A stretch of DNA of 64,000 bases. Origin: a virus. Shown here in pieces: positions 7,601 to 28,273 of the stretch; the stretch's first letter is position 1; the number at the start of each line of letters is the position of its first letter. The stretch lies in the UHGV virus genome UHGV-0200554. One strand, 5' to 3'. Both the position numbers and the translations under genes were made by a program. Below the pieces are notes generated by a model. It was given only the letters and a program-made list of their open reading frames with translations, was not told the origin of the DNA and did not search any database.

Positions 7601-7705
7601 TCAGAGAAACTCTTTCAAAACTTTAGCTTGGGTGATCATAAAGACACCGTAAGCAAGAACTACAGGTGCTGTTACGACAGTTAAGAGATAAGCTACTGCC
7701 AACAT
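7601..7705 (-). CDS. tiny single-pass membrane peptide (34 aa)
   Basis: Hand-translated; GAGGAG RBS; tightly packed after 7709..7981. Confidence 0.3.
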   Translation of the reverse strand: MLAVAYLLTVVTAPVVLAYGVFMITQAKVLKEFL

Positions 7706-7708
7706 GCT

Positions 7709-7981
7709 TTACTCCTCAACTACCTCGTAGTTTTCAGGTAAAACAATCAGGTTTTCACCACTACCCGGGGCATCAAAAGTAGCCATACCTTCCGGCAGGT
7801 GCAGTTCAACCAAAGTGAGCAGAGCTTCACGTTCAGCTTCGCCCATACCTTCGAAAGTTTCGTCACCTAGGGCATCGCGAGCTACATCTTCCGGTGTAGG
7901 AATTTTAGCTTCTACGATCATACCTTCAGTCAGGCCGTGGATTGGATCAGCGATTTCAGTGTTCAGTAATTTAATTTTCAT
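7709..7981 (-). CDS. small acidic protein, paralogue family member (MKIKL...NYEVVEE)
   Basis: Paralogous to 6968..7240. Confidence 0.5.
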   Translation of the reverse strand: MKIKLLNTEIADPIHGLTEGMIVEAKIPTPEDVARDALGDETFEGMGEAEREALLTLVELHLPEGMATFDAPGSGENLIVLPENYEVVEE

Positions 7982-18658: not shown

Positions 18659-20794
18659 TCACAACATGCAGTGATCACCGCCTACATGTTTAACCCTCTC
18701 TATAACTTCCTGCTGTTTACCAACGTTGAACGGACGAGCGTTTGGTGCACTCAAGTAACCAGATACACGCCGGATTACAGAGAGTGTTGCAGGATCATGG
18801 TTACCACATTCTGGGCATTCGAAACCTTTTGCTGTTGCCTTAGCTTCGCCTTTAAAGCCACATTTCATACAAAAATCAACAGGTTGGTTTACCCCGTAGT
18901 ACATAATATGCTTGTAACCAAAATCAATAAGGGCTTCTAAAGCACCGAGGTTATTTCTCAGGTTTGGTGTCTCAATGTAACCAATGTTACCTCCGTTGGA
19001 GATCGTGGCAAAACCTTCCTCGTATAACCATTTGTCAAAAGGTGTTGTATATAACCACACAGGTTGGTGGAAGCTGTTAGTCAGGTATTCACGTTCATGT
19101 TCCAGCACCCCAGGATACGCTCTGTCTAAGCAAGTAGCTGATTTATAGCATAAACTTTCGCTCGGCGTGCCGTACAAGCTAAAACCTAATCTGCTGCGTT
19201 CTTTGAACTCAACGCATTTATCCTTCATGTGCTGGAGGATACCCAGAGCAAGGTTTTTGTCGCCTTCCCTACCGAGGATTTGGCATGTTTCATAAACACC
19301 AATGTAGCCGATACTAATCGAAGCATAGCCATCAAAAAACAAACTGTCTATGGTTTCTTCGGGGTCAAGACGGGCAAGAACACCCTCACACCACATGATC
19401 GGGTTCTGCCCCGCTTTTGTCCCTTTCAGGCGGTTGACACGAACCATGTGGGCATCGTATGCCAGTTCAAGATATTCATCAAGAACAGCGTAGAAGTCCG
19501 TACCCTCTGTCTTAGCTTTCGCTGCAATCATAGGCAGGTTAAGGCTAACAACACCTAGATTGAAGCGCCCCAGATATTTCTCTTCACCTGTTTGTTGGTC
19601 GATATATTTAGAGAGGTAGCTTCTACATCCCATGCTTGTAACATCACCAGCAGTAGAACCTGTAACTTTTCTGTTCAAAGGCACAGAAACAAAGTCTGGG
19701 TAAATTCGTTCTGCTGAGCATTCCAAAGCCAGGCGTTTCAGGTCATAATTTGGGTCACCTGGGTTAAGGTTCACACCTTCTTCAAGGAAGAACAAAACTT
19801 TAGGGAATACCGGGGTTATATGATCCTCCCCAATACCACCTTTGTGAACCATAAGATAGTTTTTAGTAATCATCCTCCCAAATTTAGAAGTATCTAGACC
19901 TAAACTGATAGTCAAAAACGGAGTTTGGCCGTTGGTGCTGGTTAATGTGTTGATTTGATAGAGAAAACATTGCATACTATCGTACACATCTTTCTCTGTC
20001 ATTTCATCGGCGACGCTTTCCGGCAAACCGTGTTTTTTACAGAAAGATAAGTTTTTATTATGTGTTTTTTCTACATAAGGTACAAGATAGCGGTCTATGT
20101 GGCTGTACGTCTGCCCACCATATTGCCCACCAGAAACAGCAGCTGAAATTTGTGAAAGAACTGTTGCAGCTACATTAATAGAATTGGGTGTTCCTATAGT
20201 TGCGTTACCTATTGTAAATCCATGCTCCAGCATGTCTGGGTAATTTACAAGACAACAGTTTGTTAATGAACTGATAATATAGTCAAGATCGTGCACATGT
20301 ATAAAACCATCGGTATGTGCCTTCGAAATATGTTCCGGTAGGATCTGTGTCACAGCTAAGTGCTTGCTTAGAATCCCAGCCAGTAAATCACGATGAGTGT
20401 GCACATGCTTGGTGGGTTTGTTAGCATTCTCCTTGGTGAATTCATCACAGGATTGGTCAAGGAAACCATTAACATCTGCCAGTAGTTTACCACCAGCTTC
20501 ACGATTGTTGTCACGGGTTTTACGGTACTCAATGTAAGCACGGGCAGCATCCAGATAACCATAGCGCATCAAAGCGTTTTCCACCATTGTGTGGATTTCA
20601 GGTACTGTAATCTCCTCTTCATGCTGAGCATAACTTTCCAGCTCAGAAACAATCTCGTCAGCAACAAAGTGTGCTGCATGGAACGCTCTTACCACATCAG
20701 CCCCAGATGCCTCCAGGGCTTTTTGTGCAGCTACCACTATTTTACGAGCATCAAAAGGTTCTGTTGTCAGATCTCTCTTGATTACGTTTAACAC
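18659..20794 (-). CDS. nrdD: anaerobic ribonucleoside-triphosphate reductase (glycyl radical enzyme)
   Basis: 711 aa; C-terminal glycyl-radical motif RVSGYLS and CxxC...CxxC zinc ribbon; GTG start with GAGGAG RBS. Confidence 0.85.
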   Translation of the reverse strand: MLNVIKRDLTTEPFDARKIVVAAQKALEASGADVVRAFHAAHFVADEIVSELESYAQHEEEITVPEIHTMVENALMRYGYLDAARAYIEYRKTRDNNREAGGKLLADVNGFLDQSCDEFTKENANKPTKHVHTHRDLLAGILSKHLAVTQILPEHISKAHTDGFIHVHDLDYIISSLTNCCLVNYPDMLEHGFTIGNATIGTPNSINVAATVLSQISAAVSGGQYGGQTYSHIDRYLVPYVEKTHNKNLSFCKKHGLPESVADEMTEKDVYDSMQCFLYQINTLTSTNGQTPFLTISLGLDTSKFGRMITKNYLMVHKGGIGEDHITPVFPKVLFFLEEGVNLNPGDPNYDLKRLALECSAERIYPDFVSVPLNRKVTGSTAGDVTSMGCRSYLSKYIDQQTGEEKYLGRFNLGVVSLNLPMIAAKAKTEGTDFYAVLDEYLELAYDAHMVRVNRLKGTKAGQNPIMWCEGVLARLDPEETIDSLFFDGYASISIGYIGVYETCQILGREGDKNLALGILQHMKDKCVEFKERSRLGFSLYGTPSESLCYKSATCLDRAYPGVLEHEREYLTNSFHQPVWLYTTPFDKWLYEEGFATISNGGNIGYIETPNLRNNLGALEALIDFGYKHIMYYGVNQPVDFCMKCGFKGEAKATAKGFECPECGNHDPATLSVIRRVSGYLSAPNARPFNVGKQQEVIERVKHVGGDHCML

Positions 20795-21137: not shown

Positions 21138-21540
21138 CTTCGCCTATAGACATTTGTTGCTCTTTGTCCTGGCGTTTTGTGTACTTACGAACGTTCACGC
21201 GGTCTTCAACCGGAATATCATACGGCAGATCAGAAACCAGTAATGCATCTTCCGGTACTTCTTCTACGTCAAGAATATCCACACCATGATAAATTTCTGG
21301 ATACAGGAAATCTTTCCGCATTGTGCCAGCGAAGATATCTGCTTTACGATAATGTGTGGTTTTGTTTTTACAACGGACGTTCTTGCCTTTCATCACATCT
21401 ATGTTCTTGAGGTCAAAACCTACAGCATAGAGTGCAGCCCGTAGCCCGTTTCTTGTCTTAAGATTAACACCTGGCAACTGTGCCAGAAAATCAAGGGTCA
21501 CAGAGATAAATACTTTCTTAGGTGTCATCATATCGCTCAT
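21076..21540 (-). CDS. hypothetical protein (154 aa)
   Basis: ORF. Confidence 0.45.
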   Translation of the reverse strand: MSDMMTPKKVFISVTLDFLAQLPGVNLKTRNGLRAALYAVGFDLKNIDVMKGKNVRCKNKTTHYRKADIFAGTMRKDFLYPEIYHGVDILDVEEVPEDALLVSDLPYDIPVEDRVNVRKYTKRQDKEQQMSIGEDEPFDIDDFKRLEKLFGLEA

Positions 21541-21646
21541 TTCTGTCTCTCCTTGAAGCCGTCCTTTGGGCGAGACGAACTTCTATTTTACACTATATCT
21601 TGCGGTTGATCAATTACAAATTATCTATCGTTGGGCAAGGTTTTGC

Positions 21647-21853
21647 CTATCGGCACCTCCTTACCCTAAGATGATACTCTTTCTCTTTTGCTATGTCAAT
21701 GTCTGCTTTAAACACCAAGTAACGATTGAGCATTTCTTGACACATATCGTGATTGATCCTGTTGGCAAAGACCAACTTTCCGTCCTTATCCTGCACTTCC
21801 AGCCAGTCACCTTCATGCACTACAGGATCACCACCTTTAGCACACCGACTCAT
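21647..21853 (-). CDS. hypothetical protein (68 aa)
   Basis: ORF. Confidence 0.35.
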   Translation of the reverse strand: MSRCAKGGDPVVHEGDWLEVQDKDGKLVFANRINHDMCQEMLNRYLVFKADIDIAKEKEYHLRVRRCR

Positions 21854-21855
21854 GG

Positions 21856-22458
21856 CTACTCCAGAATAGTATCCATGAAGTCTTCGATATCATACCAGTC
21901 ATCTGCCAAGCAGTCAACCGGATTAGTCAGCTCATAGAACTGTTCGTACGGAGTTTTCATTTTAATCAGGATCGTTTTAGCTGGATCAAACTGATTAAAG
22001 AACTCATTACGGTCGTCTATCATCACATCACAATTGATGTTACCTTTGAAATGTGTAGCATAGAAACCGTGGCCCTGTGAGTGATCATCAAGGTCCATGA
22101 AATCTTGAGTCCAACGCTTCAGGAAGCGAACTTTTGAAGCCTGATGGCCTTTGTGGCACATTGAGATAAACGCAATCTGATGACCCTGTTTAACCCATTT
22201 CTTAAGAACATCCATTGCATGACCATACGGACGAAGACGATCATACAAGTATGGATCCTCCCAGAAATCTTTAGGTTTCAGCATATGCTTACTCGGTTCA
22301 GGGAAGTATTTACCCAGGTCGTAGAACAATCTACCATTCTTAGGATGCTCTTCTGGCAGAGTGAAATCACCATTCACTCTGTACATCGCTTCCATCCAGT
22401 TCCACCATGCACTATCTGTAGGAACAAGTGTGAGATCAACATCAACGCCGATTAACAT
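21856..22458 (-). CDS. HAD-superfamily phosphatase, possibly 5'(3')-deoxyribonucleotidase-like
   Basis: N-terminal DVDLT (DxDxT) and later IDD motif. Confidence 0.5.
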   Translation of the reverse strand: MLIGVDVDLTLVPTDSAWWNWMEAMYRVNGDFTLPEEHPKNGRLFYDLGKYFPEPSKHMLKPKDFWEDPYLYDRLRPYGHAMDVLKKWVKQGHQIAFISMCHKGHQASKVRFLKRWTQDFMDLDDHSQGHGFYATHFKGNINCDVMIDDRNEFFNQFDPAKTILIKMKTPYEQFYELTNPVDCLADDWYDIEDFMDTILE

Positions 22459-22462
22459 ACTG

Positions 22463-23521
22463 CTACTCCTTTAAACTGTACACCCAGGGTTTAAGTATCG
22501 TTTTTTCTATCTCTTTTACAGCTTCCTTGACACTACCGTTGTTACTTACAGTATAGTGCTCGGCACAGGTATTTGTCAAGGGTTTTCGTGAATCGTTTTC
22601 CCAGGTACAACCTTGTCTTTCGAGATGTATAACAATAACTCTGAACCCCGCGTCTATAAGGACCTGCGCCTCTTCTTCAAAACCTGAATCAGAGCACAAC
22701 ACCAGGTTGCACTTATCTAAACGTATAGAGTTAAGGGTAAACCTACCGAACCAATCTTTTCCGTATTTTGGTTTAACATACTCCTCACTTAAGAACTTGA
22801 ACCACTCCCTGTTGGTATATAATTTACCACAAAACTCTATGTGTGGGATCCTCTCTTTGAAATCCCTGTTGTCATAAAAAGTTTCAAGCCTTTTATACAT
22901 TTCCTTAGACAACAGTTTGCGGCTCCAGTACCATAAACCTGATTTAAAACTGGCCTTGAAATGGTGCAGCCTGAATGCGTTACATATAAAATCCTTGCCA
23001 GAGCCTGGAGGTCCATTTAGCAATACGACGGTTTTTATCTTAAGAGCATCCTCTGCAAAATCTCTAGCAAAAGCGGCTTCCTCAAAAGTATCATAGTTCC
23101 CTAGAAATATAGACCTGTTGCTGCCGTCACCTATTCTAGCACACCATTTGCTATTATGTTTGCTAAAAGTTACTCCAGTTTTACCGCTTGTGTTGTTCGA
23201 ATACTTATTGCACCGTTTAGCAGCGCTGTTGTTAAATGTTTTACTCGTGCATTCAAGATTCCACACATAGTCCCCTACGTGGACTCCGTGCTTGTGGTTT
23301 ATTACCATATCTTCTGACAAGGGATAGTAAAACATTTCCCAGATAATCCTATGCCTTTTATATCTTTTACCATTGTACCAAATTCTCCAGTAACCCTTTT
23401 TTCCCTCTGGGCCTCCTGCAAGATCACCTGCGTTATGACTAAACCTCCCTTTTTTTCCTTCAGTTGCCTCTTTCCAGTACAGCTTGCCTTTATCATATGT
23501 GAAAATATTATTCCAATCCAT
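22463..23521 (-). CDS. in-frame fusion: N-terminal HNH-AP2 homing-endonuclease-like domain + C-terminal T4 gp1-like deoxynucleoside monophosphate kinase
   Basis: N-terminal HNH-type His/Asn pattern and AP2 motif (YDTFEEAAFARDF); C-terminal P-loop LLNGPPGSGKD and gp1-like VIVIHLERQG...NNGSVKEA; no ATG/RBS at junction. Confidence 0.6.
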   Translation of the reverse strand: MDWNNIFTYDKGKLYWKEATEGKKGRFSHNAGDLAGGPEGKKGYWRIWYNGKRYKRHRIIWEMFYYPLSEDMVINHKHGVHVGDYVWNLECTSKTFNNSAAKRCNKYSNNTSGKTGVTFSKHNSKWCARIGDGSNRSIFLGNYDTFEEAAFARDFAEDALKIKTVVLLNGPPGSGKDFICNAFRLHHFKASFKSGLWYWSRKLLSKEMYKRLETFYDNRDFKERIPHIEFCGKLYTNREWFKFLSEEYVKPKYGKDWFGRFTLNSIRLDKCNLVLCSDSGFEEEAQVLIDAGFRVIVIHLERQGCTWENDSRKPLTNTCAEHYTVSNNGSVKEAVKEIEKTILKPWVYSLKE

Positions 23522-23704
23522 AATAATCTCCTACTGTTGAACAACACCAAACCACGATGCTGGAAACATACCGAGGTATCTGTTCATACCGTGTGGGAGA
23601 TATACCAGCACATCGCAACCGACCTGCTCAACCAGGTAGACACAACCGATCTGCAAAGTTTTATCAGCATCTTCTTTGAGGCATTTTGCTTTTAACATTA
23701 TCCA

Positions 23705-23730
23705 CTCCTGAGGGGCCGAAGCCCCTCCAG
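23705..23730 (-). terminator. GC hairpin (GGGGCC-loop-GGCCCC), possible terminator
   Basis: Perfect hairpin; weak T-tract. Confidence 0.35.
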
Positions 23731-23736
23731 CTTCTG

Positions 23737-24720
23737 TTAGATGATCTGAATTAATGTTTCTTTCATTTCTTCGCGTGTACGGATGTTGCGACGATCACGA
23801 GCGATTGAACCACAGTCATCACAGCGATACACCTCGAACTTACTTACCTGGGTGTAAGCATGAACACCATCTTGCTTGGTCAGGTGTACACCACCACAGC
23901 GTGGGCAACGCAGAACAGGTTCTTCGTCCTGATAATACAGCGACATGTTCGGATGCTGTTTTGCAAACGGACGTGCAAGCAGGTATAAACCTTCCAAAGA
24001 GAGGATATCTCCTACATTATATTCACGCATTTTAGCAAATGCATTCAAGTCCCCATGCACACAGGATACCCACATTTGGAACGTGTGGTCCATAAGTTTT
24101 TGATTTTCAAGTTGAAAATACTTACAGGCATACTCCAACGTATTCGCATTTAAGTGGAATGCTTTCTTAATCATCTTCAAAGTATCCACTTCTTTATACG
24201 GAGATACTGGTGGCATATTGTGAAACGCGAACCGCATGTTGCTCCAGTTATCATCAAAAGGGGCGTTATGGGCTATTGCTATATCGCAAGTATCCAAGTA
24301 ATACCACAAATCTTCAATCAAATCATGGTCGTTGTGGATATCCTGTTGCCACATAGGGTAGTCAGGTAGACCACAGTCAACAACGGTTGGGCTATCGAGC
24401 CATTTACCAGCAAACGTCAGCATGTATGGGAAAATTTCAATCCCAGCAGGTTGGATGTTGGTTTTATAATGACCAAAAAACCACCCACAGGTTGGAGAGG
24501 TTTCTGTATCATATATCCAGATTTTAGCACCACGGTTCTCTTCCATGAAACGCTCAGCAGCTTCGCCAGCAATCTCATTGAAGTTAGCCTGGGCTTTTTT
24601 CAGCTGTAGACGAACCCAACTTTCACGGGATTCTTTACCTAATAACTCACGAGCTATCTGCCTATTGGTCCAACCCTGAGTCTTAAGCTCTACGATTTTT
24701 TCTACTGTTAAATCAGCCAT
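23737..24720 (-). CDS. DnaQ-like (DEDDy) 3'-5' exonuclease with N-terminal HTH and C-terminal zinc ribbon
   Basis: Exo I IYDTETS, Exo II IAHNAPFD, Exo III YNVGD; CPRCG...CDDCG. Confidence 0.6.
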   Translation of the reverse strand: MADLTVEKIVELKTQGWTNRQIARELLGKESRESWVRLQLKKAQANFNEIAGEAAERFMEENRGAKIWIYDTETSPTCGWFFGHYKTNIQPAGIEIFPYMLTFAGKWLDSPTVVDCGLPDYPMWQQDIHNDHDLIEDLWYYLDTCDIAIAHNAPFDDNWSNMRFAFHNMPPVSPYKEVDTLKMIKKAFHLNANTLEYACKYFQLENQKLMDHTFQMWVSCVHGDLNAFAKMREYNVGDILSLEGLYLLARPFAKQHPNMSLYYQDEEPVLRCPRCGGVHLTKQDGVHAYTQVSKFEVYRCDDCGSIARDRRNIRTREEMKETLIQII

Positions 24721-24730
24721 TTCATTATCC

Positions 24731-24961
24731 TTAGTAGAATCGTACGATATCCTGAACTTTGAAGTCTCGATACTCGCCTTTCTCTATGTCAAAAGCGTGC
24801 ATCAGATAACAATCTTCAGGATGCCATTCTGTATGTCCGAACCAGATCTGTGGCTCTGTGACTATCCGATCAGAGTATTTACCTTTGTAGTTACGATAAA
24901 GAAATCTTAGTACAACTGCTTCACATGGTTTAAACACGGGTTTCTCTCTGATCTCCGACAT
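24731..24961 (-). CDS. hypothetical protein (76 aa)
   Basis: ORF. Confidence 0.4.
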   Translation of the reverse strand: MSEIREKPVFKPCEAVVLRFLYRNYKGKYSDRIVTEPQIWFGHTEWHPEDCYLMHAFDIEKGEYRDFKVQDIVRFY

Positions 24962-27071: not shown

Positions 27072-27551
27072 TTAATCTGTAACCACACCTCCAGCATTAC
27101 GGAAAACCCTCAGCATTTTTTCAATATCCTCAACCCGCTGATCATAAAGTTTACCAGAACCTGGAGGTGGTGGGAAACTCGCCCAGCGGCTACGGCATTT
27201 ATAGATAGCTGAACGGATCCTCCCTTCATAAATGTCATCAAGGGCTTTACATTCACGGATCAGTTGTTTTGCTATAGCATCCTGACTTGCTGGGCCGAAA
27301 TCTCTTAAGCCGAGCTGTTTCATATAATGTTTGGCATATTTCTCCAAGATCTGATATCTGCCGAATGCTGATGACGTTAAGCCCGGACGTAGTTTGACAT
27401 AAATACCTGGGTGTTTACTAAGATCTTCTATATACCTCCCGCCACACAAGATGTGATACGAAGCAGCTTCGCTACCGTAACGGTCAGTTCCTTCACTGAA
27501 CGAAATCAACGAAAAAAATGCTCTCAATTGCTTATCCTTATTTAATTTCAT
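27072..27551 (-). CDS. endolysin, lambda R-family lytic transglycosylase
   Basis: Strong resemblance to lambda R: AFFSLISFSEGTD, GRYQILEKY, KQLGLRDFGPASQDA, WASFP. Confidence 0.85.
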   Translation of the reverse strand: MKLNKDKQLRAFFSLISFSEGTDRYGSEAASYHILCGGRYIEDLSKHPGIYVKLRPGLTSSAFGRYQILEKYAKHYMKQLGLRDFGPASQDAIAKQLIRECKALDDIYEGRIRSAIYKCRSRWASFPPPPGSGKLYDQRVEDIEKMLRVFRNAGGVVTD

Positions 27552-28273
27552 TTGAACCTCCGATTAAACCACTCTTCCAACAAACCGTTATGCTTTGCAT
27601 ACTCTGCGGATTTTCTGACACATACAGCATCCCACCACTCTGCATATTGCCCTAGGTGATACCTTTTACTATTTTCAGAAATCTGAACTTGCCACTTTTC
27701 AGCATCATGTCTCCATTTAACACCTGTGCACCCCGACGTGTTATTAAGTTTAAGTGTTCTGCCTTTGTAAGTACCTAAAATTAGCTGTTTTCTTGCCTCT
27801 ACAGCCTCGTCTTTGGTTCTAAAGTACCCAGCAAAAAGCGCCCCGCCTGTGATAGTGTTATATTCTGCATACCATAAACCGTTCTCACGTTTCTTATGAA
27901 CGCCTGCGTGACCGTGTAAATTATTTTTCTGTAGTAAATTATTTCTTATACGATCCTTGTTATTCTCACTATATGTTCCCATAGCAAGATTTTCTATATT
28001 ATCCTGACCTTTTATGTCATTTAAATGCCTGACAAGAAAGTTTTTTGTTAGGGAGTTATAAAACATATCATAAACTATTCTATGACGTTTCCTCTCACGA
28101 ACCTCCGAGGATTTAATACCGATGTACCCTTGCCTATCTTTACAACCCGCTTTTGTGCCAGCCTTTATAAAGAGTTGACTTTTGCCTCTACCTCTGTAAT
28201 GATTCTTTGTCCAAATTAGCTCCCCATCTTTGTACCAGAATGGGAAATTATCATTAAAGAAGAAATTAATCAT
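27548..28273 (-). CDS. HNH homing endonuclease with AP2 DNA-binding domain
   Basis: HNH core plus AP2 motif (YFRTKDEAVEARKQ). Confidence 0.65.
   Translation of the reverse strand: MINFFFNDNFPFWYKDGELIWTKNHYRGRGKSQLFIKAGTKAGCKDRQGYIGIKSSEVRERKRHRIVYDMFYNSLTKNFLVRHLNDIKGQDNIENLAMGTYSENNKDRIRNNLLQKNNLHGHAGVHKKRENGLWYAEYNTITGGALFAGYFRTKDEAVEARKQLILGTYKGRTLKLNNTSGCTGVKWRHDAEKWQVQISENSKRYHLGQYAEWWDAVCVRKSAEYAKHNGLLEEWFNRRFK

Follow-up and report, generated by a model that had tools for sequence, protein, structure and literature searches.

How is a kinase made whose gene has no ATG of its own? The question is raised by a single open reading frame (ORF) of the virus genome UHGV-0200554, of which we analysed a stretch of 64,000 nucleotides (the window), the sequence coming from a metagenomic contig of ~139 kb (ENA ERZ1034815). 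The ORF, at 22463..23521 on the minus strand, encodes 352 aa that begin as an HNH-AP2 homing endonuclease and end as a deoxynucleoside monophosphate (dNMP) kinase. We think it probable, if by no means certain, that this is a genuine translational fusion, in which a foreign kinase allele would be produced solely as the C-terminal part of a protein of ~41 kDa (predicted for the full-length chain) and the endonuclease would be sheltered by selection on the kinase.

Our proposal for how such a gene could work is as follows. A free-standing gene for an I-HmuI-type HNH nuclease with an AP2 domain and an adjoining dNMP kinase gene would have merged into one ORF, and this composite would now fill the kinase slot of an uncultivated clade related to rV5, translated from the resident Shine-Dalgarno (SD) sequence and ATG. 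It would behave as an alternative, recombining allele: on entry it would displace the resident kinase ORF between its third and penultimate codons and supply the kinase function itself, through a foreign allele ~30% identical to the resident kinase. Any frameshift or premature stop codon arising in the endonuclease half would then put an end to kinase synthesis too, and because kinase synthesis would depend on the endonuclease reading frame, the endonuclease would be protected from its usual decay. We infer that the endonuclease is active on some target, that the kinase works in its fused form and that transfer takes place by homing; within those bounds, service as the phage's dNMP kinase is the best-supported role of the fusion, and it is probably also an active homing endonuclease.

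One reading frame for two enzymes

The two halves are recognized separately by the PHROGs profiles, aa 1-160 as HNH endonuclease (phrog_99, E 9.5e-41) and aa 156-342 as deoxynucleoside monophosphate kinase (phrog_139, E 8.5e-30). The sequence-only reading had described an HNH-AP2 homing endonuclease in frame with a T4 gp1-like dNMP kinase and had given the first ~165 residues to HNH-AP2; the single ORF and its two PHROGs domains bear this out, and the coordinates were exact, with only the minus strand left unstated. In Pfam the fusion is matched by HNH_3 (18.6 bits against a cutoff of 24.8), AP2 (14.9 against 33.3) and P-loop families, all below threshold, and NCBIfam gave zero matches for the protein. 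The public nr record DAM57105.1, identical to the window protein, is titled 'MAG TPA: homing endonuclease'.

The N-terminal half consists of an HNH (His-Me finger) nuclease domain (aa 1-100, 23222..23521, minus) and an AP2 DNA-binding domain (aa ~110-160, 23042..23194, minus). A profile of 26 homologues of this half matched I-HmuI (1U3E) with E 6.8e-9 over positions 2-98 and the AP2 domain of the plant protein WRI1 (7WQ5) with E 9.5e-9 over positions 99-151, ERF1 and TEM1 also being matched; the AP2 domain of the window alone, at aa ~110-157, matched that of WRI1 in phmmer (E 6e-7). The AP2 part has the three-stranded sheet and C-terminal helix of that family, and its GV..../W.A.I/LG.F.T.EEAA.AY pattern. 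In the alignment to I-HmuI, residues D74-H75, N87 and N96 of that enzyme fall on N75-H76, N88 and N97 of the window (23231-23299, minus); over the 26 sequences H76 and N88 never vary and N97 hardly does, so that the beta-beta-alpha-metal motif is recognizable. Stand-alone homologues are 152-171 aa long, and in the 25 compared the AP2 helix is followed by a tail of 10-14 aa (FHxNHGx), which is absent from the window, where the helix ends at L160, right at the junction.

The C-terminal half (aa 162-352, 22466..23038, minus; P-loop NGPPGSGKD at 22991-23017) was modelled from a 43-sequence alignment with a pLDDT (predicted local distance difference test) score of 94.7. Its best fold match is T4 gp1, and the fold is that of the P-loop NMP kinases, with strand 1 predicted to begin at T164. 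The residues invariant in alignments of 30 and 43 family members, namely the P-loop GKD, a conserved R, SE..KP, D.GF..E, R.G and DSR, are all present in the window and also unchanged across the five fusion variants described below. The name dNMP kinase, which we use as a prediction, derives from PHROG and T1 annotations and from the fold. A search of representative proteins also turned up two natural fusions, P0030 (403 aa) and P0080 (461 aa), in which a PNK-phosphatase-type domain (phrog_415) precedes a phrog_139 dNMP kinase in a single chain, and such fusions show that the kinase family tolerates fusion at its N-terminus. The order of domains in these two proteins mirrors the PNK-then-kinase gene order of T1-like phages.

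The composite gene is maintained across lineages. Independent assemblies (ENA, Logan) of different samples carry it: a protein identical to that of the window is found on 4 contigs, and the 90% cluster comprises five fusion variants of 349-359 aa, 91-95% identical, on separate metagenome contigs. For four variants, those of the window and of contigs L005, L021 and L022, we compared the DNA. All four versions keep the frame, with the junction ...GAG GAT GCT CTT AAG (A/G)TA AAA ACC. Over six pairwise comparisons (dS 0.24-0.44) the ratio of nonsynonymous to synonymous substitution (dN/dS, omega) fell within 0.04-0.22 in aa 1-160 and within 0.08-0.11 in the kinase half, which means purifying selection on both. 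The extreme C-terminus is looser: L021 encodes a fusion 3 codons shorter, constraint on the protein is weakest over the final ~10 residues, and in L005 (7060-7080) the TAG stop has been lost (GAGGAGACAGATAATG), making the ORF 7 codons longer, so that it overlaps the start of the downstream gene.

What, then, starts the kinase? The chain runs ...FARDFAEDAL-K161-I162-K163-T164-VVLLNGPPGSGKD, with codons AAG ATA AAA ACC at 23041..23030 (the junction codons proper, AAG ATA AAA for K161 I162 K163, occupy 23033..23041, minus). No in-frame ATG lies between M72 and M208, and M208 is already beyond the P-loop. One alternative, which we hold to be unlikely, is that initiation at ATA (codon 162) or at a near-cognate codon yields a separate kinase, the long ORF being a read-through form of the endonuclease. 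ATA does occupy exactly the position of the ATG in stand-alone kinases, that of T1 starting ATG AAA ACA (MKT...); a GAGGA 8-10 nt upstream would pair with the anti-SD sequence at -5.8 kcal/mol; and the 12 codons before the junction (150-161; 23003-23040 with the junction), which coincide with this weak SD-like motif, show zero substitutions, synonymous ones included, in the four lineages, the longest invariant run in the gene. However, only three of the lineages have ATA at codon 162; L021 has GTA (Val) there, with its kinase half under equal constraint. The pairing energy, against -5.8 to -10.2 kcal/mol at genuine starts in the window, is equalled or bettered before 21% of the codons of the fusion gene; the invariant run is statistically unremarkable where ~65% of codons are invariant; and ATA initiates in Escherichia coli with roughly 1% or less of the efficiency of ATG. 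A TTG at L167, four codons downstream of ATA, was also considered and ruled out as a start: the other three lineages have TTA at this position, and a protein begun here would lack strand 1.

Since codon 162 is GTA in L021, TTG is TTA elsewhere and the SD-like motif is weak, no start signal is conserved at the junction, and in L021 at least the comparison implies that a kinase containing the P-loop can only be made within the long protein. The sequence-only reading had noted neither ATG nor ribosome-binding site at the junction, which is essentially right, GAGGA being weak and non-distinctive; its alternative, a kinase starting at a non-canonical codon, is disfavoured by the same three observations, SD-like matches of this strength being common in the gene.

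The kinase slot and the movement of the cassette

The surroundings of the fusion show what it has displaced. No cultured phage matched the region at the DNA level (megablast, 21500-24800), and at the protein level the genes on either side share 56-77% identity with those of rV5-like Vequintavirus phages. In the syntenic slot these phages have a stand-alone P-loop protein of 204 aa (MDIIVLNAPPSSGKD...), and after it comes the orthologue of a 200-aa gene that in the window lies at 21856..22458 (minus), directly downstream of the fusion. This gene is 56% identical to the rV5-like orthologue, which likewise follows the kinase; it resembles 5'(3')-deoxyribonucleotidase (Pfam NT5C, E 3e-5, just under the curated cutoff), and its 99% identity cluster has 156 members.

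Closer relatives were sampled as ten sibling contigs (L011-L020) that carry the commonest variant of the downstream gene, sibling DNA being ~94% identical to the window in the flanks. In all ten, a stand-alone kinase of 209 or 212 aa sits directly upstream of the 200-aa gene, and L009 has this same stand-alone kinase as well; the comparison with relatives lacking the endonuclease that the sequence-only reading had proposed therefore finds the slot occupied by a stand-alone kinase in 10/10. The order exonuclease subunit, 55-aa ORF, kinase, 200-aa gene holds in nine of the ten, L012 having no called 55-aa ORF. The 55-aa ORF (23531..23698, minus, in the window) flanks the slot and lies outside the cassette; L005 and L021 retain it ahead of the fusion, and in L022 it is deleted. 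The resident kinase is of the rV5 type, whose rV5-like orthologue is 30% identical to the kinase half of the window.

Both edges of the replaced block are sharp. On the left, genomes with the fusion (window, L005, L021, L022) and without it (L014, L016) share ...CAGTAGGAGATTATT ATGGAT and part company right after ATG GAT; the initiation region shared with the resident kinase (23522..23533, minus) consists of the TAG of the 55-aa ORF, which overlaps the SD sequence AGGAG (23528-23532), then ATTATT and ATG. On the right, (A/G)AGGAGTAGCAG(T/C)ATG is common with fusion-free siblings, the breakpoint being |GAGGAGTAG, and homology to L009 picks up again at window position 22470; this boundary (22459..22471, minus) comprises the last two codons AAG GAG, the TAG and a spacer, and it supplies the SD sequence of the next gene (AAGGAG). 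Predicted pairing is -7.3 kcal/mol at the fusion start and -8.2 kcal/mol at the next gene. Because the DNA boundaries fall after codon 2 on the left and at the last two codons, stop and SD sequence on the right, the fusion ORF replaces the resident kinase ORF exactly and is driven by the resident SD and ATG. The earlier suggestion that an endonuclease had captured the 5' end of a kinase gene gains support here, the fusion beginning at the SD sequence, ATG and second codon of the siblings' kinase. The 'MD' N-terminus by itself was not upheld as proof of insertion after codon 2, as MDW or MNW is the native N-terminus of many stand-alone endonuclease homologues; microhomology or coincidence may account for the shared ATG GAT.

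Further upstream, a mosaic breakpoint lies at ~24490, inside the exonuclease-subunit gene (23737-24720). L009, L012 and L017 carry a 333-aa DnaQ-like allele of that subunit, near-identical to that of the window for the first ~77 residues and then strongly diverged.

How the composite may have arisen is suggested by T1 and by the Nouzillyvirus TH21 (Drexlerviridae), in which, as in the window, a homologous HNH-AP2 gene stands directly upstream of a homologous kinase in the same order and orientation. Identity to the window is 29-33% for HNH-AP2 and 27-29% for the kinase in family alignments, and 29-31% for both halves together by tblastn. Unlike the window, which lacks all three and encodes a single protein, these phages keep the stop, the ATG and the C-terminal FxxxHG tail of the endonuclease: in T1 the HNH-AP2 gene ends 2 nt before the kinase ATG (TAA AC ATG AAA ACA...), and in TH21 its stop is followed at once by the in-frame kinase ATG. 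From such a layout (endonuclease, stop, 0-2 nt, ATG, kinase), a short deletion of tail, stop and kinase start would give one ORF, and this is the simplest path that the comparison offers. Two point mutations (stop to AAG, ATG to ATA) were set aside as an origin, since the 10-14-aa tail of stand-alone homologues is absent from the window, which makes the short deletion likelier.

Among 1.84 billion representative proteins only the fusion cluster matched over both halves, other matches covering one half at no more than 45% identity; a word-indexed protein search with the whole fusion returned P0001 and two weak kinases only, and the kinase half, scanned against IMG/VR, yielded a single locus (L006), weak and irrelevant. 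Because close unfused relatives of either half were not found in the databases searched, the fusion is taken to be old and its donor lineage unsampled. It has also travelled. In L022, dS in the downstream gene is 0.63-0.86, against 0.24-0.40 from cassette to cassette; elsewhere downstream-gene dS is 0.11-0.23 in all combinations, fusion-bearing and fusion-free genomes not being separated. Since the divergences of cassette and flanks are discordant in this way, the cassette has passed from one genomic background to another, whether through homing or through ordinary recombination. This discordance and the presence/absence polymorphism at one slot are the indirect signs of homing.

A second case of the same kind occurs in the siblings. 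In L009 (6001-7011), L011 (646-1656), L013 (647-1657) and L019 (647-1657), an HNH-AP2-AP2 endonuclease is fused in frame after codon 6 (MSEIRE|) of a 76-aa gene, which is uninterrupted in the window (24731..24961, minus), giving a protein of 336 aa. This endonuclease lacks a Met of its own, and the host part picks up again at residue 7, with residues ~7-46 recoded and the end identical to the uninterrupted gene. Omega is 0.13-0.25 in the endonuclease part and 0.06-0.19 in the host part, and both parts are under purifying selection, while in L015 (651-1657) the second fusion is frameshifted into 206 + 128 aa. Because a second HNH-AP2 endonuclease has been fused into the 76-aa gene in siblings, in-frame N-terminal fusion is recurrent among the endonucleases of this clade. 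More tentatively, and with the odds somewhat against it, we suggest that these enzymes use in-frame 5' fusion as a regular habit, comprising a borrowed SD and ATG, a recoded or foreign copy of the host gene as the immune allele, and escape from the degeneration phase of the homing cycle, since each frameshift or nonsense mutation that disabled the enzyme would cost the host protein as well; the basis for this is that two independent loci, the kinase slot and the 76-aa gene, are both under purifying selection.

Other endonucleases populate the same region. The window has a free-standing 241-aa endonuclease (HNH + 2xAP2; 27548-28273, minus), 32% identical to the fused one, which overlaps the start of the next gene by 4 nt and is absent from the otherwise collinear L005; in L009 a 227-aa HNH protein is encoded at a position neighbouring this site. 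The anaerobic ribonucleotide reductase NrdD, intact in the window (18659-20794, 711 aa), is split into 2-4 pieces in most siblings by different endonuclease ORFs (HNH_3, NUMOD4, NUMOD1; L005 8727-12140, L009 10392-13011, and also L012, L015, L017, L018, L020, L021 and L022). In L021 this gene contains a group I intron at 7670-7925 (Rfam Intron_gpI, 58.6 bits).

Function and fate of the composite protein

If the long protein is made, its endonuclease half need not be selfish any longer: HNH-AP2 might have been domesticated and now serve the kinase as a functional domain at its N-terminus, such as a tether to DNA or a regulator. To this we assign a low probability. In some pairs omega of HNH-AP2 (0.04-0.08) equals the level of the kinase half, which shelter from frameshifts alone would not explain. 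Yet compared with the stand-alone kinase the fusion allele is rare, its nuclease retains the catalytic H and N, and cassette and flanks are discordant; moreover, a like fusion in a second, unrelated host gene suits a habit of endonucleases better than an innovation specific to the kinase.

A single chain could also be cut at the junction, by a host or phage protease, into free endonuclease and free kinase. Such proteolysis is compatible with all the sequence data, and the products of mitochondrial intron ORFs that are read in frame from the upstream exon undergo such processing. The junction, however, has no linker, with the AP2 helix reaching L160 and kinase strand 1 predicted from T164, so that little chain would be exposed, and no protease motif or autoprocessing domain was found with Pfam; we give this route a slim chance.

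Splicing is very improbable. An endonuclease within a self-splicing intron or an intein would leave a restored kinase (MD-KTVVLLNG...), and indeed the insertion starts right after codon 2, removal of aa 3-162 would leave a plausible kinase N-terminus, and siblings have the group I intron in NrdD. But no Rfam intron family was detected in 22300-23800 at E<=10, the same tool having found the NrdD intron of L021 as a positive control, and the inserted 480 nt are wholly taken by an HNH-AP2 of minimal size, leaving no room for a ribozyme core. For an intein, neither a Hint domain (Pfam) nor the His-Asn/Cys-Ser-Thr junction residues are present, the insertion beginning at W3 and ending ...ALKI|K. 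As for an assembly or sequencing artefact, such as an error that on correction would restore a stop and start at the junction (the case named by the sequence-only reading as refuting a fusion), or a decaying pseudogene, the chance is negligible, because four DNA versions diverged at dS 0.24-0.44 hold the frame over >1 kb with omega far below 1 in both halves, and independent ENA and Logan assemblies agree.

Several points nevertheless weigh against a fusion that is both translated as one chain and mobile. ATA is kept in three of the four lineages behind 12 invariant codons, which leaves room for low-level internal initiation there. The full-length structure model, from a 5-sequence alignment, reached a pLDDT of only 39.8, which bears on the steric fit of so nearly linker-less a junction. 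The metal-binding acidic residue of I-HmuI, D74, is N75 in the window (INH for DH); since the same replacement before the catalytic His is common to several free-standing homologues (P0004, P0005, P0013), and is also seen in the 336-aa fusion, it marks a subfamily and is no evidence of decay. General recombination explains the discordance of cassette and flanks as well as homing does. Finally, the fusion allele is rare, with 5 variants on <10 contigs against 87 contigs for one downstream-gene variant, and such rarity is unlike a strongly driving element.

In-frame fusion among homing endonucleases

Homing endonuclease genes usually spare their host gene by lying between genes or in introns or inteins, and decay is expected once they are fixed. 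The I-HmuI nickase of Bacillus phage SPO1 is like the endonuclease half in its N-terminal ~100 aa and in the catalytic His and two Asn; unlike it, I-HmuI resides in a group I intron, carries other C-terminal DNA-binding modules, is unfused and has Asp74 where the window has Asn. T4 gp1 (1DEK) differs from the kinase half in length (241 aa against 191 aa), is only 14-15% identical to it and lacks the 160-aa N-terminal nuclease. ORFs for endonucleases and maturases in mitochondrial group I introns can be in frame with the upstream exon and so borrow the translation start of the host; these, however, are spliced out, whereas the window has no detectable intron and the host enzyme follows downstream in the same chain.

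Two phage systems come closer. In Aeh1 (mobE/nrdA) and in ShiLan, as in the window, an HNH gene lies in or against a gene of nucleotide or DNA metabolism, with neither intron nor intein and with host function apparently retained. Unlike the fusion, mobE of Aeh1 splits nrdA into two separately translated pieces. In ShiLan an HNH endonuclease is hidden in a methylase gene, in a frame differing from that of the host gene (PMC11855218), whereas in the window it is in the frame of the host gene, read from the host start codon into one polypeptide. We found no published description of such an endonuclease-kinase fusion in the literature, and on our best reading it is a new form of free-standing homing endonuclease.

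Here an endonuclease that has remained intact in diverged phages, and that brings its own copy of the enzyme, would simply be built into the polypeptide of its host enzyme. The system is directly testable with one synthetic gene and one target allele. Should the fused protein prove active as both nuclease and kinase, it would represent a splicing-free life within coding sequence for a selfish nuclease, protected by selection on the host gene. Records titled 'homing endonuclease', of which DAM57105.1 is an example, could then hide the only dNMP kinase of a genome, a warning for annotation. The locus would likewise be a natural case in which a distant homologue has replaced a whole ORF precisely from boundary to boundary, and would help explain phage mosaicism at nuclease-marked borders. 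And if in-frame fusion is indeed a habit of these endonucleases, it would be a third route of embedding, beside introns and inteins, for which no splicing is needed.

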